Shown: positions 37,124 through 45,306, numbered from the stretch's first letter. The stretch: DNA of 45,306 bases from a virus (IMGVR_UViG_3300033146_001050:1-45306); one strand, 5' to 3'. The notes: a model not told the origin generated them from the sequence alone. Numbers and translations: made by a program.

Positions 37124-37348
37124 TTAGTAACTACCACCTTCCATTTGTCTTATTTCATCTTCCAGTTCTTCAATCCTTTTCTTAAGTCGTTCTATAGTTT
37201 CTATAGCTACTAGTAAATCAGCTCTTAATTCTGTCTTATCATTGTTAAGGCTATAGTTTATTAAGTCTTCCAATTCCTTAGCTGTATACTTAGTGCTGTT
37301 TATTTTGACACTTATACCTGTATCATCTACGTCAATTGTCACTGGCAT
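37124..37348 (-). CDS. small coiled-coil protein
   Basis: ORF track. RBS AGGAG. The C-terminus LKKRIEELEDEIRQME is coiled-coil-like. Confidence 0.4.
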   Translation of the reverse strand: MPVTIDVDDTGISVKINSTKYTAKELEDLINYSLNNDKTELRADLLVAIETIERLKKRIEELEDEIRQMEGGSY

Positions 37349-37416
37349 CTTCTAACTCCTATAGTGTATGTATATACATACACCTACAAATATTGCTACA
37401 CCACCAAAGAATAAAA

Positions 37417-37632
37417 TTATGAACAATTCTCCACCTCCATAACTCCAGTGATAAGTGAGCTTGTACAACCGGCACTACTATAGCGGTACTTTTCATCTCT
37501 TCCCCATACACGTCCTTCGTAATAGCTTGCGCACTTAGTTCCTAGACACTCTTTCCGAAACACTGGACACATAAGACTTAGTTGCTTAGCTCGTGACTCT
37601 AGTAATTCTACTGTAGCTTCATCTTTGTTCAT
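37417..37632 (-). CDS. small Cys-rich protein
   Basis: ORF track. 71 aa. Contains CPVFRKECLGTKC ... GC. Confidence 0.4.
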   Translation of the reverse strand: MNKDEATVELLESRAKQLSLMCPVFRKECLGTKCASYYEGRVWGRDEKYRYSSAGCTSSLITGVMEVENCS

Positions 37633-37657
37633 TTTCTAACTCCTAATAAATTTGTTA

Positions 37658-37730
37658 TACCACTAACAGGGCTTGAACCTGTAACCGCACTATTGCTAGC
37701 TACGTATGTTTCCAGTTACATTATAGTGGC
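37658..37730 (-). tRNA. tRNA-like element (73 nt; loop CUAGCAA would give anticodon AGC; defective anticodon stem)
   Basis: Minus strand: GCCACTA TA ATGT AACTGGAA ACAT A CGTAG CTAGCAA TAGTG CGGTT ACAGG TTCAAGC CCTGT TAGTGGT A. It has a 7-bp acceptor stem (G1-U72 wobble), a perfect 4-bp D stem with GG in the loop, and a perfect 5-bp T stem with a TTCAAGC loop. The anticodon stem has only 1 Watson-Crick pair plus 3 GU pairs. Confidence 0.45.
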
Positions 37731-37735
37731 TTACG

Positions 37736-37984
37736 TTACGACACTTTATTTCCGCACTTAATACACTTACGACTCTTATCTAAAGCCTCAAATCTCTTAC
37801 AATTTTCACAGTAAAAGAACAAGCTCTTAAGTTCTTTTAAACAAAATAAACAAGTTACCTCATTTAAGTTTCTAGTCCAGCCTAAATGCCTACAGTTTTG
37901 TTTATAGCCACATAGGCACTGTATGGTATTCTTAACTTCATCTGTGTAATGAACACAAGAATACTCTCTTCTATACCCTGCCAT
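37736..37984 (-). CDS. zinc-finger protein (H/C3 module + CxxC..CxxC module)
   Basis: HYTDEVKNTIQCLCGYKQNCRHLGWTRNLNEVTCLFCLKEL, then CENCKRFEALDKSRKCIKCG. Confidence 0.5.
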   Translation of the reverse strand: MAGYRREYSCVHYTDEVKNTIQCLCGYKQNCRHLGWTRNLNEVTCLFCLKELKSLFFYCENCKRFEALDKSRKCIKCGNKVS

Positions 37985-38258
37985 GTTTGTAAATCAAATA
38001 GGCCGATTGGGTACTAAAAGCAGTATAGTCCCTATCTCCTGAAGCTTTGTCAAAGTCATAAAACAAGTGAAGCTCACGGCATAACTGTTCAAAGCTATTC
38101 GTATTATGCTTAGGTTCAGTGACTTCTGGAAGCTTAGAACATAGGTCTATAATAGCAAAATAATTTTCTGTTTTAGGGCTTAATACAGTTGATTGTATTA
38201 AGCTGTTAATACAGTTAAGTCTTACCTTAAGTTTAAAAATTACTTCTTGTTCAGTCAT
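37971..38258 (-). CDS. hypothetical protein
   Basis: ORF track. 95 aa. Confidence 0.4.
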   Translation of the reverse strand: MTEQEVIFKLKVRLNCINSLIQSTVLSPKTENYFAIIDLCSKLPEVTEPKHNTNSFEQLCRELHLFYDFDKASGDRDYTAFSTQSAYLIYKHGRV

Positions 38259-38406
38259 CTAAAAAGTCCTCCGCTTCACTAGCTTTACGCTCTTCTTCAA
38301 GTATATCCTGATAAGTACAATAAGCTTCATACTCTCTATCATCTAAGATAAGTTCTTCATCTTCTGTTAAACTGTAAGTCTCTATATAATTATCTAGTCC
38401 TTTCAT
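38251..38406 (-). CDS. small acidic protein (51 aa)
   Basis: Below the ORF-track cut-off. ATG at 38406 has AAGGAG 7 nt upstream. MKGLDNYIETYSLTEDEELILDDREYEAY... ATGA overlap with the next gene. Confidence 0.35.
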   Translation of the reverse strand: MKGLDNYIETYSLTEDEELILDDREYEAYCTYQDILEEERKASEAEDFLDD

Positions 38407-38498
38407 CTTAATATCTCCTTTACACACTTCCAGAATATACCACTAAGTACTACAAGCCCTATGACCAGTGCGATACAACCACCTATAAAGTCAGGCAT
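38403..38498 (-). CDS. tiny membrane peptide (31 aa)
   Basis: Hand-translated MPDFIGGCIALVIGLVVLSGIFWKCVKEILR. The ATG overlaps the upstream stop and the TGA overlaps the downstream ATG. Confidence 0.25.
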   Translation of the reverse strand: MPDFIGGCIALVIGLVVLSGIFWKCVKEILR

Positions 38499-38949
38499 TG
38501 AGTTCCCACTTGTTATTACTATAACATTTAAGGCATACTGGACACTGCTTACGGTCTCCATATCTACAGTTATCACAAGTCTTACTCTCTTCCTTGTTGA
38601 GTAGCTCTCTACACTTGTTACAGTTCACACGGCTCTTGTTCAGTGTCGTAGCACACACAAAGCTTTTTAACTTTGTACCGCACAATGTTTCTAGTCCATT
38701 TTTTAAGTAATGTATGCTCATGTTCTTTAATTCCTTTCTTAATTCTAAAATATCTTTAAACAAATTGTTTCTTTGGTCTTGTTTAACAGTACCAAAGTCA
38801 AAGTGTAACTGTTTAGATTCTAGTCTTCTCTTACATGTAACACATGTCACGCGCTCTGTAAGAAATGTTATTTTTATTTTGTTTAAAGGTAAACCACATA
38901 AGGTCTTTTTATTGTCAGTAATATAATGCGTAAATCTTAGCTTGCTCAT
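38491..38949 (-). CDS. zinc-finger protein (two H/C3 modules + CxxC..CxxC)
   Basis: HYITDNKKTLCGLPLNKIKITFLTERVTCVTCKRRL. HYLKNGLETLCGTKLKSFVCATTLNKSRVNCNKCRELL. CDNCRYGDRKQCPVCLKC. Confidence 0.5.
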   Translation of the reverse strand: MSKLRFTHYITDNKKTLCGLPLNKIKITFLTERVTCVTCKRRLESKQLHFDFGTVKQDQRNNLFKDILELRKELKNMSIHYLKNGLETLCGTKLKSFVCATTLNKSRVNCNKCRELLNKEESKTCDNCRYGDRKQCPVCLKCYSNNKWELNA

Positions 38950-38959
38950 TCTCTATCTC

Positions 38960-39508
38960 CTAAAATTCTTTCTCTCTATGCCAACCTGTTTTGTATTCAG
39001 TCATTAACTGCAACAGTTCTTTACTGCCTTCATTAGACAATTCCATTATTCTTAGAACATGTGCTACAATCTGTTTACAAATATGTGCATCTGCAATAAA
39101 CTGACTGCCGCACCATAAAGGTAATACTGAACAAGCCAGAGTAGCACCTCTAAGATCAGTTCCATTAAGTTTAGCTCCTGTAAGATTAGCACCTCTAAGA
39201 TCAGCTTCTTTGAGTTTAACACCTGTAAGATTAGTACCTCTAAGATCAGCTTCTTTAAGCTTAGCTCCTGTAAGATCAGCTCCTGTAAGATCAGCTTTTC
39301 TAAGATCGGCACTTCTAAGATTAGCATATCTAAGATCAGCTTTTCTAAGATCAGCTCCTTTAAGCTTAGCTACTGTAAGATCAGCTTTTCTAAGATCAGC
39401 TTCTCTAAGATCAGCTCCTTTAAGCTTAACTCCTGTAAGCTCGGCACCTCTAAGATTAACTCCTGTAAGATCAGCTCCTGACTCTATTTTGTATCCGTTT
39501 ACTCTCAT
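38960..39508 (-). CDS. pentapeptide-repeat protein
   Basis: About 22 consecutive A(D/N)LxG/K-type pentapeptides (ADLTGVNLRGAELTGVKLKGADLREADLRKADLTVAKLKGADLRKADLRYANLRSADL...), followed by a ~60-aa non-repeat C-terminal domain. Confidence 0.85.
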   Translation of the reverse strand: MRVNGYKIESGADLTGVNLRGAELTGVKLKGADLREADLRKADLTVAKLKGADLRKADLRYANLRSADLRKADLTGADLTGAKLKEADLRGTNLTGVKLKEADLRGANLTGAKLNGTDLRGATLACSVLPLWCGSQFIADAHICKQIVAHVLRIMELSNEGSKELLQLMTEYKTGWHREKEF

Positions 39509-39518
39509 TTTCTATCTC

Positions 39519-40043
39519 CTATTCTCTTCTTATCCCCTGTTCATCCATCATATTAAGGCATAGTTCACAGGTTACTTCTTTTGTTATATCTGTCTTAAAC
39601 ACTGTATGATCTCTACTGTATCTACAATTAACTCCATTGTAGTGTGTTTTTCTTAGTGCTCTTAACGAAGGCGGTAAGCCATCTACGTAACCTAAGTGTT
39701 GCAAACACCTTATGCAGTCTACTTTGTGCTTGTCGTTAGTTAGCATGTTATCAGCATTGTCATTAGTCATGTTACAAATAGAAGTTTCACCATCTTCAGT
39801 GAAGTGTTTCTTAACTAACGTAGGTGCTAACTTGTAAGTCTTCTTAGTTTTTACTCTTCCAGTAGCTATCTCAAAGTCAAACACAGATCTTACTAATCTG
39901 TCCATAGTGATACATTTTACTTGACTCGTGTTACGCTCTGTATCTATAAGGACTATTGTCACTGACTCTTCATCATCATTAAACTCAAAATTGAAATCGT
40001 ACTTATCTGCAAGTGCTACTTTATCTTTTCTCGGTTCCATCAT
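39519..40043 (-). CDS. zinc-finger protein (two H/C3 modules)
   Basis: HFTEDGETSICNMTNDNADNMLTNDKHKVDCIRCLQHL and HYNGVNCRYSRDHTVFKTDITKEVTCELCLNMM. Confidence 0.5.
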   Translation of the reverse strand: MMEPRKDKVALADKYDFNFEFNDDEESVTIVLIDTERNTSQVKCITMDRLVRSVFDFEIATGRVKTKKTYKLAPTLVKKHFTEDGETSICNMTNDNADNMLTNDKHKVDCIRCLQHLGYVDGLPPSLRALRKTHYNGVNCRYSRDHTVFKTDITKEVTCELCLNMMDEQGIRRE

Positions 40044-40076
40044 TTTAGTACCTCATTGAACAAGCTATAGTTTTAA

Positions 40077-40110
40077 CTCTCTGTCTCTGTCTCTGTCTCT
40101 GTCTCTGTCT
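40077..40110. repeat. (CTCTGT)5 hexanucleotide microsatellite
   Basis: Five exact units at 40079..40108 plus partial units. Lies 34-67 nt upstream of the ATG at 40043. Confidence 0.95.
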
Positions 40111-40131
40111 ATATGGGGCAAGTGACATTGT

Positions 40132-40722
40132 TTATGCACTACATATACTCCCATCTTCATAAAACCAGTAGTCATTAACTTCACAGTTCTCTGCTACGCT
40201 CTCTCTACTTATACAGTCAGCATAATACCTTCTAAGCTCAGTATGTAGTATAGTACATTGCAGTCTATACCAATCAGTTATCTGCTCTCTGAACTTGTCT
40301 ACCATTTCTTCAAACTTATTAGTATCATCTGTAAGATCGTAGTTCTCTACTGCTATGTCAATATCTCTTACATAAGCATGGCAATAACGTGAAGCGTAGC
40401 TATTACTTATTGTCTGAATGTATAGATCAGCATCTTCTAGTAAATCTATGATATCAAAGTTAGCAAAGAACTCAGCAAACTTTAATACATTTTGCTCGGG
40501 GACTGTAAACGCAAAGTTTGAACCGCTTCCCTGACTACAACTTAAATCATAGTAGGTTCTTGTAATATGTATGCCTGTTCTTTTTTCGATGTCAACTATA
40601 AAATCATCTGTGACTACATCTGATTCAAAGTCTAAGTATCTTTCATAGTCACTTACTACTTTATCCTGAGCTTCTTTGTTTAGCTCATTAAACTGGTAAA
40701 CCTTAATTGTTACATCTTTCAC
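40132..40722 (-). CDS. hypothetical protein (conserved-looking phage/plasmid family, function unknown)
   Basis: GTG start after AGGAGATAGAAA. N-terminus VYQFNELNKEAQDKVVSDY. C-terminus NDYWFYEDGS. Confidence 0.45.
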   Translation of the reverse strand: MKDVTIKVYQFNELNKEAQDKVVSDYERYLDFESDVVTDDFIVDIEKRTGIHITRTYYDLSCSQGSGSNFAFTVPEQNVLKFAEFFANFDIIDLLEDADLYIQTISNSYASRYCHAYVRDIDIAVENYDLTDDTNKFEEMVDKFREQITDWYRLQCTILHTELRRYYADCISRESVAENCEVNDYWFYEDGSICSA

Positions 40723-40740
40723 TTTCTATCTCCTATTATC

Positions 40741-40793
40741 TTGTTTAGCTCTCTATAAGCTTGAGCAGTAGCTCTTGAAGCTACCGCCTAAAC
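40741..40793. repeat. 53-bp intergenic repeat, copy 1
   Basis: ttgtttagctctctataagcttgagcagtagctcttgaagctaccgcctaaac. 49/53 identical to 41298..41350. Confidence 0.9.
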
Positions 40794-40982
40794 CTACAAT
40801 AACTCTTCTAAGTAGTCAGCTTCTAGTCCAAAGTACTCTTGACAAATACACTCAGCTCCGTCAAGATCTTCTTGTAACAAATACTCTTCAAGTGCTGTCT
40901 CCGCTTGTCCTATAAGTTCCAGTGCCTCTTGTTCTGTCATTCCGTCTCTACGTATCAGTATATCTTTGATTGTCTCTGGCAT
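40794..40982 (-). CDS. small acidic protein
   Basis: ORF track. 62 aa, Glu/Asp/Leu-rich. Confidence 0.4.
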   Translation of the reverse strand: MPETIKDILIRRDGMTEQEALELIGQAETALEEYLLQEDLDGAECICQEYFGLEADYLEELL

Positions 40983-41038
40983 GTTACTTGCTCCTTGTTA
41001 TATCCTCTGCAAAAGTTGAATAAGCGTTATTCACACTG

Positions 41039-41275
41039 TCAATTACTTTCATTGGTTTCCTCAAACATACTATAGTTCTGACATGCATTGCAAGGATGAT
41101 CGTTACCGCTTTGACCACTATGTTTACAGACAAAACATCTGTCTGCTCTCTTACAGTTCTTACATGTTACTCTATCCATTCTCTGTGTCACGTGCCATGC
41201 ACCACCTTGTTCTTTATACCGTAAGCCGCAAGTTGTTCTGTCATTGTCTTCCAGAAAGTGTACTACTTTACTCAT
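41039..41275 (-). CDS. zinc-finger protein (H/C3 module + CxxC..CxxC)
   Basis: HFLEDNDRTTCGLRYKEQGGAWHVTQRMDRVTCKNCKR, then CFVCKHSGQSGNDHPCNAC. Confidence 0.5.
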   Translation of the reverse strand: MSKVVHFLEDNDRTTCGLRYKEQGGAWHVTQRMDRVTCKNCKRADRCFVCKHSGQSGNDHPCNACQNYSMFEETNESN

Positions 41276-41297
41276 TTTCTTATCTCCTAAAATATTA

Positions 41298-41350
41298 TTG
41301 TTTAGCTTCCTATAAGCTTGAGCAGTAACTCTTAAAGCTACCGCCTAAAC
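41298..41350. repeat. 53-bp intergenic repeat, copy 2
   Basis: ttgtttagcttcctataagcttgagcagtaactcttaaagctaccgcctaaac. Confidence 0.9.
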
Positions 41351-41356
41351 TGATAA

Positions 41357-41584
41357 TTAGTTAAGATTCTCTAAAGTTATTGTGCCTTCTGCTATTAGTT
41401 TCTTTCTCTCTTTGCTGTCAATACCAGTAAACTTTGTTATGTGCTTATTAGTAGTAACACTATAATTGTAGTACTTTTTATCTAGTACTATGTAACTACC
41501 ATGCTCTGTTAATTTGTTCATTGCTACACAAACACCGTAACTATAACATCTGTTTCCTACTACTTCCATGTTACTCTTACTCAT
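41357..41584 (-). CDS. hypothetical protein
   Basis: ORF track. RBS AGGAG. 75 aa. Confidence 0.4.
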   Translation of the reverse strand: MSKSNMEVVGNRCYSYGVCVAMNKLTEHGSYIVLDKKYYNYSVTTNKHITKFTGIDSKERKKLIAEGTITLENLN

Positions 41585-41616
41585 CTTAATATCTCCTATA
41601 TCTTTGACTTGTTTGC

Positions 41617-41886
41617 TTAACCTACACTATCGCATAAACTAAGTATGTTATTCATGTGATATTCTTCTTGAAACTTCTCTATTTTTATCATTAACTCTTC
41701 TAGTCCCTTAAACATATTAAAATCGCAAGAATCTATTTCATCATTGTTGTATTTGAAGCTAATAAAAGGATTATCATTCCTAAAGCTTACACCAGTCTTT
41801 ACAAACAAGTTGGTTAATTCTTGTTCCAGATAATACTTAACTGAACTATTACAAAACTCAGCTGTCAATTCTAATTCTCTATTCAT
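41617..41886 (-). CDS. hypothetical protein
   Basis: ORF track. RBS AGGAGATAGAAA. 89 aa. Confidence 0.4.
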   Translation of the reverse strand: MNRELELTAEFCNSSVKYYLEQELTNLFVKTGVSFRNDNPFISFKYNNDEIDSCDFNMFKGLEELMIKIEKFQEEYHMNNILSLCDSVG

Positions 41887-42158
41887 TTTCTATCTCCTAT
41901 GCAATTGTCTAACTTCATTAAACAATTCTTACAGGTTACTTGTTGCTTGCTCATTGTACAACTTAATCCAGTTGCTCTTCTGCCACAGATCAACTCTTTG
42001 TTACTTACCCTGTAGTGCACAACACTGTTCTTCATCTGAATACAGGATATACTTTCATACTGACTATGCTCTTTACAATTTAAACACTTTCTCTTGTCTA
42101 TGTTATATCTGCAAGTCTTACAACTTCTCTTAATCTCTACAATCATACCCCCTCCCAC
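41883..42158 (-). CDS. zinc-finger protein (CxxC..CxxC + H/C3 module)
   Basis: CKTCRYNIDKRKCLNCKEH, then HYRVSNKELICGRRATGLSCTMSKQQVTCKNCLMKL. Confidence 0.5.
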   Translation of the reverse strand: MGGGMIVEIKRSCKTCRYNIDKRKCLNCKEHSQYESISCIQMKNSVVHYRVSNKELICGRRATGLSCTMSKQQVTCKNCLMKLDNCIGDRK

Positions 42159-42403
42159 TTACTGTACTCAGTAACACTCACCGGATCACAATTCTTACAC
42201 GGTTCAGCTCCTATACCCCGCCAACCGTGTACACATGTTACACACCTGTGCTGATCTCCCAATAGCTTTAAGCACTTGTCACATGTCACATTGTCCAATA
42301 AGTTACTTGAAAAGTTTTCTTTGCTACCGCATAAACACGAATGTAAATTGTTTACATACACATTGTAACAAATCTGAATATCTGCCTTGACAATATTACT
42401 CAT
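42143..42403 (-). CDS. zinc-finger protein (H/C3-like module + CxxC..CxxC)
   Basis: LHSCLCGSKENFSSNLLDNVTCDKCLKLL, then CVTCVHGWRGIGAEPCKNC. Confidence 0.5.
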   Translation of the reverse strand: MSNIVKADIQICYNVYVNNLHSCLCGSKENFSSNLLDNVTCDKCLKLLGDQHRCVTCVHGWRGIGAEPCKNCDPVSVTEYSKWEGV

Positions 42404-42708
42404 AGAAAATACCCGTAAGTATCAAGTACTACTTTTACCATTTTAAAGCTATCTAAGATAATAACCTTTTTAGGTGTCTCTTTTCTATGGCTTATGTAGT
42501 AGTCATAAGCGCTGTCAGTGGTCAGGTGTATAAGCCCTTCTGTTGCTAGCTCTTTGTACTCATTATTCTTGAATATAAGCTTTAATGAATTGATTTTACA
42601 GTCAATAGCTACGTAACAAAAATGTTTGTGTAGCTTCCCATCATCTTCTTTTTCTTCACTAAAATAAGCTTTTAGGTCTTTAATTTCATTGTCAATTGTC
42701 GTTTTCAT
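42400..42708 (-). CDS. hypothetical protein
   Basis: ORF track. 102 aa. First gene after the 42828..42975 operator/promoter region. Confidence 0.4.
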   Translation of the reverse strand: MKTTIDNEIKDLKAYFSEEKEDDGKLHKHFCYVAIDCKINSLKLIFKNNEYKELATEGLIHLTTDSAYDYYISHRKETPKKVIILDSFKMVKVVLDTYGYFL

Positions 42709-42827
42709 GCCTTATTTCCTTCATTTTCTAGTTTTTATGCTTAACACTACATATAGTGCTTTCTTATTATACATAGTGCACTAACTTTTTTAGGTCGATT
42801 TATAGTCGAAGTTAGTTAACTGCACTC

Positions 42828-42883
42828 CGTCAATCAATTTATAGAGTTATTCAAGGACACATAACTCTATAAATTGATTGACG
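42828..42883. promoter_or_regulatory. 23-bp perfect inverted repeat (candidate operator or 5' leader hairpin)
   Basis: cgtcaatcaatttatagagttat (42828..42850), 10-nt spacer, ataactctataaattgattgacg (42861..42883). Confidence 0.85.
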
Positions 42884-42915
42884 ATTTTTACTTTTAAGCT
42901 TGACTTTTGCTATAT

Positions 42916-42944
42916 TTTATATTTTTCATGAAAAAAACGTCCAA
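42916..42944 (-). promoter_or_regulatory. sigma70-like promoter, leftward
   Basis: Minus strand reads TTGGAC (42944..42939), 17-nt spacer, TATAAA (42921..42916). Flanked by the three cgtcaatcaatttatagagttat copies. Confidence 0.4.
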
Positions 42945-42949
42945 ATATT

Positions 42950-42975
42950 CGTCAATCAATTTATAGAGTTATTCA
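42950..42975. promoter_or_regulatory. third (direct) copy of the operator-like sequence
   Basis: cgtcaatcaatttatagagttattca, identical to 42828..42853. Confidence 0.85.
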
Positions 42976-43010
42976 CTTTTCCTGTTTTCAAAAGTGAATA
43001 TTTTAAGCTA

Positions 43011-43274
43011 CTAGCTTGTTGTAGTGTAATATTTCACCCCATTTTTGTCAAAACGATACGCTCTAGTGGTGTTACCTACTACACAGAAGGTATATTCTGT
43101 TAATTCGTTCACTGGTATGTATACGTTTCGGCCTAACAATAAGCTTTTAAGCTTACCAGTTTTGTTTCCGACGTGCACTAAGCGTCTTAGTGCTGGTTGT
43201 TTAACTCCTGTTATCTCACTAAACTGTTTAACTGTATAATACTTCTTATTTTCTATGGTTACTGTCTTATCCAT
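43011..43274 (-). CDS. helix-turn-helix DNA-binding protein (excisionase/MerR-type HTH)
   Basis: YYTVKQFSEITGVKQPALRRLV is an HTH_17-like segment. 87 aa. RBS AAGGA. Confidence 0.5.
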   Translation of the reverse strand: MDKTVTIENKKYYTVKQFSEITGVKQPALRRLVHVGNKTGKLKSLLLGRNVYIPVNELTEYTFCVVGNTTRAYRFDKNGVKYYTTTS

Positions 43275-43307
43275 TTCTTTTTCCTTGCCCTGTGAGGCGC
43301 TTTGTTT

Positions 43308-43379
43308 GTCAATGACTGTCTATACACTTTTTCTGTGCCGCTTGCTCTGGCAGACAATATGACTCTTTAAATCATTGAC
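43308..43379. repeat. GTCAATGA ... TCATTGAC inverted pair (related to the ends of the ~96-bp element)
   Basis: gtcaatga at 43308..43315 and tcattgac at 43372..43379. The minus strand reads gtcaatgatttaaagag, like the right ends of copies A-C. Confidence 0.6.
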
Positions 43380-43425
43380 TGCTGTCCGTCTCGCTGGCTG
43401 GCTGACTGTCTCTCTTGACTATATT

Positions 43426-43453
43426 ATTATATCACATAATAGCTAGCTTGCAA
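43426..43453 (-). promoter_or_regulatory. strong sigma70-like early promoter, leftward
   Basis: Minus strand reads TTGCAA (43453..43448), 16-nt spacer, TGaTATAAT (TATAAT at 43431..43426). Shares the 13-nt block TGTGATATAATAA with the promoter at 44693..44723. Confidence 0.55.
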
Positions 43454-43460
43454 CATTAAT

Positions 43461-43500
43461 TTTCATTTATTTTCATTTATTTTCATTTATTTTCATATAT
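43461..43500. repeat. 10-bp tandem repeat (tttcatttat) x3 plus a degenerate fourth unit
   Basis: tttcatttat tttcatttat tttcatttat tttcatatat, immediately upstream of the -35 at 43448..43453. Confidence 0.95.
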
Positions 43501-44046
43501 CTGAAAAATAAAATGTGTCTTTATCTGTTGCTTAGCTTACTGGCTAAAGGCTTAAATGTTAGAATGTATAATTTCACTTGACATTTATTACGTGACAGAA
43601 GTTAATCCGCATTAACAGTTTGTAACTTTTGTAACATCTGTATAAAGCTAGATGTTACAAAGTGTGTTCTTTTAATTTGTTTCTGTATATAGAGTTATTT
43701 GACCTGTTACACGTGTTACACTGAAACAGGTGGAAAAAGTATCGAGGCAAAAGTGTGGACTTTTGAAAAGTGCGTTTTCAACTGTTTATTTGTTACGTGT
43801 ATTTTTAACACTCTAATTTCTTTCTCTATAAGCATTTATTTTGTAACACCTGAATACAGTGTGTACCTACGTTAGACCCCCTATAGGTCTAGAACATAAG
43901 AATACTTTTTATAACTTTGTTAGGCAAGCCTAAAAGTGTATACGTACTTTAGACAATATGTTGTTTACTTCGTAACCATAGTGCAATTGAATATCTACTT
44001 TTTGTTATATATGTTTAGTTGAATATATGTACTAGTTTTAATAGCT

Positions 44047-44108
<62 letters not shown>

Positions 44109-44140
44109 CCTAATAGTACTATTACATGATGTAATAATAC

Positions 44141-44180
44141 TATAAGAAAAATAAGCCGGTAAGCTCAAAACTTACCGGCT
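44141..44180 (-). terminator. rho-independent terminator after the 44187..44654 gene
   Basis: Minus strand reads agccggtaag-ttttgag-cttaccggct followed by tatttttctta. Confidence 0.75.
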
Positions 44181-44186
44181 AAACTA

Positions 44187-44654
44187 CTAGAGTGTTTCAG
44201 ACCGGATATGAACATATCCGGTCCAGTCTTCGGGCTGAGTATCTATACCCTTAAGAGTGTAAACCTTATTTTCGTAGCTGATCCACACTGGCTTGTCTGA
44301 GTTAATCAGTTGTCTGATTCTTTTTGCCATTTCTGGCGCTCCGAACTCAAACAATTCAAAAATCTCAATACTGGTAACTTCACCAGCAATGCCACGATCA
44401 AGGAACAAAGATCTAAGAGCATCATTAACGCCCGGTCTTTGCAATCTACCTTCTTTAAAGGCACCTGTCAAAGCTTTGAAAGCTTCAAAAACGTCAGGGG
44501 TCATGTTCTCTTTTTCAGCGGTTAAATAGCTCTTACAAAGTGCTTTTTGAGCGTCACGGATAATTTTGTTTTCTCTGGCAGTTTCTGACTTCTGTACTGC
44601 TAATTCTGCTTTGTTCATTCTGTTTTCCTTAAAGTAGTCGTTTTGATTTATCAT
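44187..44654 (-). CDS. hypothetical early protein (155 aa)
   Basis: ORF track. Has its own promoter (44693..44723) and terminator. No motif recognised. Confidence 0.45.
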   Translation of the reverse strand: MINQNDYFKENRMNKAELAVQKSETARENKIIRDAQKALCKSYLTAEKENMTPDVFEAFKALTGAFKEGRLQRPGVNDALRSLFLDRGIAGEVTSIEIFELFEFGAPEMAKRIRQLINSDKPVWISYENKVYTLKGIDTQPEDWTGYVHIRSETL

Positions 44655-44835: not shown

Positions 44836-45057
44836 TCACATGTCAAACAGGACAAACGACTGGTTTTTGTTGTGTCCCTTACCTATCACTGAATAACCTT
44901 GAGACAAACAGTAATTTTCATACTGTTCATAGTACTCCATAGCATCCGGGTAGAACCTAACATTTTTGTTTAAGTAGTTATCGTAAACACTCATGTAATT
45001 ATTGCCACCTGATCCAGTTCTGTAAGAAACGGTTAACATATAGTATGATTTAATCAT
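44836..45057 (-). CDS. small hypothetical early protein
   Basis: ORF track. 73 aa, Tyr/Asn-rich. 8-nt overlap with the upstream gene. Confidence 0.4.
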   Translation of the reverse strand: MIKSYYMLTVSYRTGSGGNNYMSVYDNYLNKNVRFYPDAMEYYEQYENYCLSQGYSVIGKGHNKNQSFVLFDM

Positions 45058-45306
45058 TCAATACCTCTTCTATAAAACCGTTAACCGAACTTGTCAAGTC
45101 GGCTAGCTTTTGCTCTTCATAACTTATTTCTAAGTCTGAGCAATAACAATCAACCAGATTCAAGGCATCCTTGAAAGTGATTTTTAGAAGTCCGGTACCA
45201 TTCCAGTACATAACAAGTGCATCGGGATAATTTCGTGCGTCATGTATTACTTTAGCCTTGATGTTTTCTAGGCGCTGGTAGAAATCATCTTCTTTGAGCT
45301 CCATAA
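45050..45306 (-). CDS. hypothetical early protein, C-terminal part (gene runs off the window end and continues at 115..316)
   Basis: The ORF-track frame is open to the window edge. The same frame continues through the duplicated 114 bp to the ATG at 316. Confidence 0.5.
   Translation of the reverse strand, partial: MELKEDDFYQRLENIKAKVIHDARNYPDALVMYWNGTGLLKITFKDALNLVDCYCSDLEISYEEQKLADLTSSVNGFIEEVLND
45193..45306. repeat. terminal redundancy copy 2 (identical to 1..114)
   Basis: See 1..114. Confidence 0.95.

Follow-up and report, generated by a model that had tools for sequence, protein, structure and literature searches.

Putative zinc-binding modules in six accessory genes of a tailed phage

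The window analysed here is a 45,306-nucleotide stretch of viral DNA taken at its full length (IMGVR_UViG_3300033146_001050:1-45306). On its minus strand, between positions 37736 and 42403, six small genes, referred to as A to F, encode eight copies of one module of ~40 residues, [VI]-H-[YF]...C-G...T-x6-V-T-C-x2-C (module 1), accompanied in five of the proteins by a second module, CxxC-x6-13-CxxC (module 2). Module 1 is a new zinc-finger-type domain family, not a new kind of system. In the explanation favoured here, the six genes would give rise to small proteins built from two kinds of zinc-binding mini-domains, which would act as binding modules, stabilised by zinc, whose core is fixed and whose surfaces are variable and mildly basic. 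The most likely targets of these proteins would be nucleic acids or the proteins that handle them. Their synthesis would proceed from a leftward transcription unit before or alongside that of the replication genes, and the genes themselves would be accessory cargo that one phage lineage can do without, and no part of its core machinery. To this explanation as a whole we assign a probability of roughly 0.45; the domain-family and accessory parts, taken by themselves, are very likely correct.

Two modules combined in six genes

The six open reading frames (ORFs) of a preliminary description of the window are all found on the minus strand where it had placed them. Gene D (41039..41275, 78 aa) has the minimal two-module architecture, with module 1 (41147-41263) followed by module 2 (41081-41137). 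The same order is adopted by gene A (37736..37984, 82 aa), with module 1 at residues 11-52 (37829-37954) and a Cys4 ribbon at residues 59-77 (37754-37810), by gene F (42143..42403, 86 aa), in which a divergent module 1 devoid of the canonical His (42260-42361) precedes module 2 (42188-42244), and by the C-terminal half of gene B (38491..38949, 152 aa), in which two copies of module 1 (38821-38931 and 38599-38715) are followed by module 2 (38524-38577). In gene E (41883..42146, 87 aa) the order is reversed, module 2 (42075-42122) being placed before module 1 (41910-42020), and gene C (39519..40043, 174 aa) is composed of a module-free N-terminal half and two copies of module 1 (39693-39809 and 39546-39647), without module 2. 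Five proteins, all but C, therefore contain the second module, as had been reported; elsewhere in the genome its sole match is a 41-aa antisense ORF, and no other credible ORF has it. Cys accounts for 8-12% of the residues in these same five proteins, and the isoelectric point (pI) is 9.0-9.5 for A, B and E and 6.2-7.6 for C, D and F. For gene E, the start at ATG 42146 is more likely than the one at GTG 42158 (91 aa), because a Shine-Dalgarno sequence, GGGAGGGGG, lies upstream of it and an ATGA overlap links it to the stop codon of F. Overlaps of this kind join four consecutive minus-strand genes (42400-42708, F, E and 41617-41886), which suggests translational coupling across 41617-42708.

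When the eight copies of module 1 are aligned, the residues C, V, C and C are invariant and His-[YF] is found in seven of them; all four putative ligands (one His and three Cys) are likewise present in seven copies, the exception being F. The second copy of gene C (C2) has a short His-Cys spacer, yet keeps the four putative ligands. In F, whose His position had already been regarded as less clear, V-Y stands where the other copies have His-[YF], and an additional His21 and Cys23 lie just upstream (LHSCLCG), either of which might replace the fourth ligand; A and F alike carry the extra Cys two residues before the conserved one (C-L-C-G). The regular expression with which the preliminary description had defined the module deserves a distinction: the eight copies are real, but the literal pattern is over-specified and fits two of the eight. 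A looser core, H-[YF]..C-[GNR]..[VI]-[TDN]-C-x2-C, recovers seven copies and has no other match in the window, whatever the frame.

Conservation of the His and Cys positions beyond what is expected by chance for small Cys-rich proteins, a point on which the module had been considered open to challenge, is borne out by two kinds of profiles, each run against the 531 six-frame ORFs of the window. In leave-one-protein-out profiles, each omitted protein scores above every non-family ORF (E 6e-8 to 0.04). A profile built from 66 external modules, belonging only to unrelated metagenomic proteins, places the six ORFs in the first six positions (B 5e-18, D 1e-12, E 2e-11, A 2e-9, C 1e-7 and F 2e-3, with the next ORF at ~1), matching six copies in full and C2 and F in part. 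That the similarity is fortuitous among Cys-rich small ORFs, or that the ORFs are not genes, could be argued from the shortness of the modules and from the poor fit of the literal expression. Such a reading is rejected by the profile rankings, which single out precisely these ORFs, by 55 matches from outside the window at E<=1e-3 among 1.84 billion proteins, by a confident fold prediction and by start signals in the form of Shine-Dalgarno sites and ATGA coupling, so that its probability is negligible.

The module-1 family and its predicted fold

The family was collected by a full HMMER search with a two-module profile against 1.84 billion representative proteins, which at a cut-off of E<=1e-3 returned 58 proteins, 55 of them external to the window. 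Module 1 is present in the external proteins, in up to seven copies each as detected by the profile, with the exception of P0006 and P0055 (repeat or Cys-rich proteins, set aside) and of P0031, which matches module 2; for the family at large, the number of copies in a protein runs from 1 to 8. The family consensus is KVHYVEDGNKTLCGRKKKKSGIKVTTDKEEVTCKKCLRILK. Across 131 modules, the first Cys and both C-terminal Cys residues are conserved in 100% of cases and the His in 99%, followed by Thr/Ser (90%), Tyr/Phe (89%), Thr (88%), Val (84%) and Gly (83%). All the conserved residues are either ligands or part of the core. The remaining columns are near random (entropy 3.5-4.0 bits), with no conserved stretch of 7-10 columns anywhere in the alignment, and the hypervariable parts correspond to the loop after C-G and to the helix surface. 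Around C-x2-C, 29-49% of the positions are Lys or Arg, as are 19-25% of the residues after C-G; the mean net charge of a module is +2.1, and 71% of the modules are positive.

Structure prediction on a single module, which had been put forward as a check at the outset, gives a confident small fold of two strands and one helix. Specifically, the AlphaFold2 model of the first module of gene B (B1), computed from a 71-sequence alignment, has a mean predicted local distance difference test (pLDDT) score of 94.3, with residues 2-5 and 21-23 forming strands and residues 32-39 a helix. In this model the His belongs to strand 1, the first Cys to the C-G turn and the C-x2-C to the first turn of the helix. 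In the full-length model of D, module 1 reaches a pLDDT of 82-90 and module 2 of ~50. Since the ligand residues are invariant and the B1 model is predicted at pLDDT 94, the His and the three Cys of each module most likely hold one Zn(II). Foldseek searches with the B1 and D models found no match in the Protein Data Bank (PDB), and those against BFVD gave weak matches, all of them to uncharacterised phage proteins.

The statement that module 1 belongs to no named family holds in the Pfam copy, NCBIfam and the PDB. No family reaches threshold in the Pfam copy or NCBIfam for the six window proteins or for 53 family members, and a PDB sequence search returned nothing beyond a motif of 13-15 residues in TRIM RING domains. 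In PHROGs, the six window proteins have no significant match (F against phrog_7505 at E 0.089); among the 53 external members scanned, phrog_7505 and phrog_15583, both annotated as of unknown function, match six and five, with best E values of 1.5e-7 and 2.1e-12, respectively. As the match spans one module, these two groups very probably represent the same domain in sequenced phages; no function, name or structure is attached to either. A "faint" entry for PF27025 (DUF8336) is recorded for the family member P0012 in a precomputed table, the model being absent from the Pfam-copy scans at E<=10, P0012 included; the region of P0012 concerned could be the module or the C-terminal part. A search of the literature for phage zinc fingers, HCCC and DUF3039 yielded nothing of relevance.

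The closest likeness among named families is to DUF3039 (PF11238), which has the same order of putative ligands, H-Y...L-C-G...V-C-P-x-C, with similar flanking residues. The comparison was made with a single DUF3039-like sequence, which matched PF11238 at E 2e-32: hhalign of the module profile against it gave a probability of 34% over 29 columns, with C-G and C-x2-C in register. The His-Tyr pair is left unaligned, because the spacer is of ~20 residues in DUF3039 against 5-12 in module 1. PF11238 gave no match in the window proteins or family members, a result that held when the cut-off was relaxed to E<=10 for the consensus and the proteins with a single module, and module 1 lies below its gathering threshold in every scan; it was not filed as DUF3039. 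Pfam describes the latter, itself uncharacterised, as confined to Actinobacteria and not as a phage-borne repeat.

Other resemblances are local. A stretch of TRIM RING domains, E-E-V-T-C-P-I-C-L-E-L-L, recalls V-T-C-x2-C-L-x2-L, but only 13-15 residues are aligned (E>=0.03) and module 1 has four ligands and no eight-ligand C3HC4 cross-brace, so that the RING assignment was discarded as a coincidence of knuckle and helix. The eukaryotic tandem arrays of C2H2 and LIM domains share with module 1 a general plan in which tandem copies of a small scaffold, held together by zinc, offer variable surfaces for binding; they differ in that module 1 has its His on strand 1, a Cys at the turn and the C-x2-C at the start and not at the end of the helix, that its arrays are devoid of a fixed linker, and that neither sequence nor fold matches. 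Module 1 is not a C2H2 zinc finger, C-x2-4-C...H-x3-5-H being absent where H...C...C-x2-C is observed. With regard to module 2, its two C-x2-C knuckles, 6-13 residues apart, resemble the zinc ribbon DZR (PF12773), whose matches in E and A are weak (best 15.6 bits against a cut-off of 27.3); by its sequence it would be a generic Cys4 ribbon or knuckle pair.

Distribution was assessed with one degenerate DNA pattern (H-Y...C-G...V-T-C-x2-C) applied to IMG/VR and to 185,579 cellular genomes, followed by profile confirmation. Among the matches listed, 26 of 119 IMG/VR loci and 1 of 120 cellular loci were confirmed, and module 1 is mainly phage-borne and widespread. In the confirmed viral loci, again among the matches listed, 27 of the 28 ORFs hold a single module and range from 43 to 321 aa (most <135 aa), with one module gene in 24 loci and two in 2. 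The present phage, with eight copies in six genes, is a copy-number outlier, carrying far more than any relative examined. Proteins with module 1 are annotated as hypothetical in four cultured phages, namely Pseudomonas phage Cruim01 (gp41), Rhodobacteraceae phage LS06-2018-MD05 (gp23), Vibrio phage phiVP505 (pA_0041) and Flavobacterium phage MaF61 (ORF159), and only marginal matches occur in Streptomyces phages Shady and AbbeyMikolon. An "HNH endonuclease" of Escherichia phage muut, retrieved by tblastn with the consensus, is a false lead and not a member of the family. At the level of whole genes, gene B found itself alone, and no full-length relative, in a word-index search of 5.8 billion proteins, and had no tblastn match in 50,697 phage records.

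A three-module protein, P0017, is encoded at 10001-10714 of contig L011, from the metagenome-assembled genome GCA_964418665.1 (59% GC), where it adjoins a PIN-domain gene amid metabolic genes; given its location in a cellular contig, module 1 is not strictly viral. Some members of the family are fusions. P0038 joins two N-terminal copies of module 1 to DUF3310, P0031 joins eight N-terminal repeats similar to module 2 (C-x2-C-x-[YH]...P-C-x2-C) to the same domain, and P0037 has a sub-threshold GIY-YIG match N-terminal to three copies of module 1. Relatives of P0031 and P0038 are labelled "nucleotide kinase" in PHROGs. ORF159 of MaF61 (L007 2006-2617) is a predicted multi-pass membrane protein with one C-terminal module 1, that is, a membrane-anchored version. 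In these four fusions the modules look adaptor-like.

An accessory block and the possible role of its products

As a single query, the SNF2 helicase of the phage retrieved nothing from IMG/VR or JGI contigs. By means of this protein, five syntenic relatives were recovered, with helicases that are 50-63% identical to it, and none of them has module 1 within 10 kb upstream of the helicase gene or elsewhere in the fetched sequence, to be compared with the eight copies of the present phage. A tblastn search with every leftward gene indicates that most of the 25.4-37.1 kb region, a helix-turn-helix (HTH) gene (43011-43274) and the gene at 44187-44654 are kept in the relatives, where the genes of 37124-42403 have no counterpart apart from a weak match for the ORF at 37417-37632. 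The six module genes thus belong to an accessory block of 5.3 kb (37124..42403, minus strand), since this block is without counterpart in the five relatives and its flanks are conserved. In this respect, the proposal that the genes are something other than housekeeping is supported as far as accessory status is concerned.

The same does not apply to their supposed expansion by local duplication. Mean identity between modules is 30% within the window, 30% between window and external modules and 29% among external ones; the copies of the window being as distant from each other as from those of unrelated phages, they would not derive from a recent local burst. A and F, which at 52% identity are mutual best matches and the sole such pair, look like a local duplication on these figures. 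At ~30% amino-acid identity, synonymous sites between the paralogues are saturated.

That the products are binding modules is suggested by the distribution of variability, because the conserved residues are all ligand or core residues while the C-G loop and the helix surface are hypervariable and rich in Lys and Arg. A role in nucleic-acid-directed binding is a tentative proposal, with odds clearly below even. We rank binding to nucleic acids, or to enzymes acting on them, ahead of the inhibition of other proteins by binding, although the data do not separate the two. Several observations weigh against the explanation proposed at the beginning. With a pI of 6.2-7.6, proteins C, D and F are acidic or close to neutral, which disfavours general nucleic-acid binding. 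The putative zinc site is deduced from residue invariance and from a predicted fold which has no structural neighbour in the PDB and, in BFVD, weak matches to uncharacterised phage proteins only. The GIY-YIG fusion of P0037 is below the Pfam threshold; the 147 genes that flank the module in the 26 viral loci, scanned with Pfam, are heterogeneous and include no recurrent family or partner; and it is from gene order that the early timing is deduced.

The non-basic character of C, D and F would be easier to reconcile with proteins that act as inhibitors in anti-defence or host takeover, each variable surface being directed to a different host protein, such as a defence component, RNA polymerase or a nuclease. 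To this can be added the hypervariable nature of the block and its absence from relatives, the condition of its products as full-length orphans with a conserved scaffold and a variable surface, and the presence in the same block of a pentapeptide-repeat protein, from a family whose members are known DNA mimics. Homology to known anti-defence proteins is nevertheless lacking, no defence-related neighbours accompany the module in the 26 viral loci, and nothing sets this alternative apart from nucleic-acid binding; we consider it unlikely, even if a role of the module genes in host takeover or counter-defence may be plausible. The same absence from relatives makes housekeeping regulation still harder to accept. 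Tandem small zinc modules do resemble eukaryotic zinc-finger arrays, Lys and Arg are enriched on the helix and repeats occur in the nearby regulatory region, as would be expected of zinc-finger transcription factors that bind specific DNA sequences to control the temporal programme of the phage. The five relatives, however, keep the same replication and regulator genes without the modules, the linkers of the tandem arrays are irregular (median 11 aa, range 0-146), and the conserved HTH gene at 43011-43274 is a more obvious regulator, all of which renders this role improbable.

Two further alternatives concern the origin of the modules and the nature of their metal. The weak GIY-YIG match before the three modules of P0037, and the occurrence of modules in variable regions and sometimes near HNH genes, would fit an origin from mobile homing-endonuclease genes, of which the modules would be DNA-binding parts or remnants that now stand alone. 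The six proteins, like most members of the family, contain no nuclease domain, the GIY-YIG match scores below threshold and the HNH entry of phage muut is misleading, so that the chances of this origin are very small. The high Cys content of A, B, D, E and F might in turn point to Fe-S cluster binding, or to metal or redox buffering, in place of structural zinc. A set of three Cys and one His in every 40 residues, in which C-x2-C opens a helix, is however typical of structural zinc sites; ferredoxin-like motifs are absent and the weak Fe-S matches fall far below cut-offs, which leaves the Fe-S alternative with the slightest of probabilities.

Returning to zinc-stabilised binding modules, proteins are already known to use small domains that bind zinc, and what distinguishes module 1 is that it is common in phages and is without a Pfam or NCBIfam model or a solved structure. 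Its definition as a family is made easy by the confident fold prediction and by an unambiguous ligand signature, and eight copies in six genes of a 45-kb phage constitute a compact natural panel for the study of its binding targets. Should the variable surfaces be directed to host nucleic acids or defence proteins, many early phage genes now listed as hypothetical would become annotated, and the module might be a source of small stable binding scaffolds. A broader and doubtful extension is that module 1 represents a new, essentially phage-specific zinc-finger fold serving as a re-targetable scaffold, here deployed as an arsenal of six inhibitors or nucleic-acid binders, each with its own target, against the host or its defences. 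If true, the HY-CG-VTCxxC module would be the counterpart, in prokaryotic viruses, of eukaryotic zinc-finger arrays.

Regulatory region and genome setting

Besides the six module genes, the accessory block contains a pentapeptide-repeat gene, a tRNA gene and eight further small ORFs without modules. The pentapeptide-repeat gene (38960-39508, minus strand, 182 aa; Pfam Pentapeptide at E 9e-42) lies between B and C, is absent from the relatives and, by analogy, may hint at host-interference cargo. The tRNA gene (37658-37730, minus strand), 5 nt downstream of A, is assigned by ARAGORN to tRNA-Ala with anticodon AGC and matches the Rfam tRNA model at 41.4 bits; an AGC anticodon is unusual in bacteria. 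The ORF at 37417-37632 (minus strand, 71 aa) has five Cys and no module, and its weak counterpart, in relative L138, is 32% identical.

An intergenic region of 302 bp (42709..43010) is located upstream of the gene chain, on the minus strand. It contains a perfect inverted repeat of 23 nt, CGTCAATCAATTTATAGAGTTAT (42828-42850 / 42861-42883), a third, identical copy of 26 nt at a distance of 122 bp (42950-42975) and a weak promoter-like site on the minus strand (42943-42914) flanked by repeat copies. From its layout, the repeat set (42828-42883 and 42950-42975), which is directly downstream of the conserved HTH_17 gene at 43011-43274, looks like an operator set. The preliminary description had placed the six genes in one leftward operon behind an operator-flanked promoter. 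The operon is favoured by the common strand, by the repeats and by the absence of predicted minus-strand terminators between ~43.0 and 37.0 kb; as for the promoter, the region is compatible with it but does not amount to proof. Going by gene position, the six genes would be expressed early, before or alongside the replication genes.

The phage genome is complete, as the exact identity of the 114 bp at its ends (1-114 / 45193-45306) closes a circle of ~45,192 bp, and the ORF at 45050-45304 probably runs on across the contig junction. The plus strand carries a tailed-phage set, including the large terminase, the portal and a 1173-aa tape measure protein, and the minus strand a replication set composed of DNA polymerase A, a UvrD-type helicase, an AEP primase, the SNF2 helicase and an HD protein. 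Megablast of the region against the 50,697 phage records found no DNA-level match, and the nearest isolates share <=35% protein identity in polymerase and terminase. Finally, a non-coding stretch of 0.9 kb (43275-44186) contains four to five tandem 10-bp units, CATTTATTTT (43454-43505), several inverted repeats, a (CTGT)n microsatellite (44040-44109) and a related CTG-rich stretch (43382-43415), and may function as an origin or in regulation.

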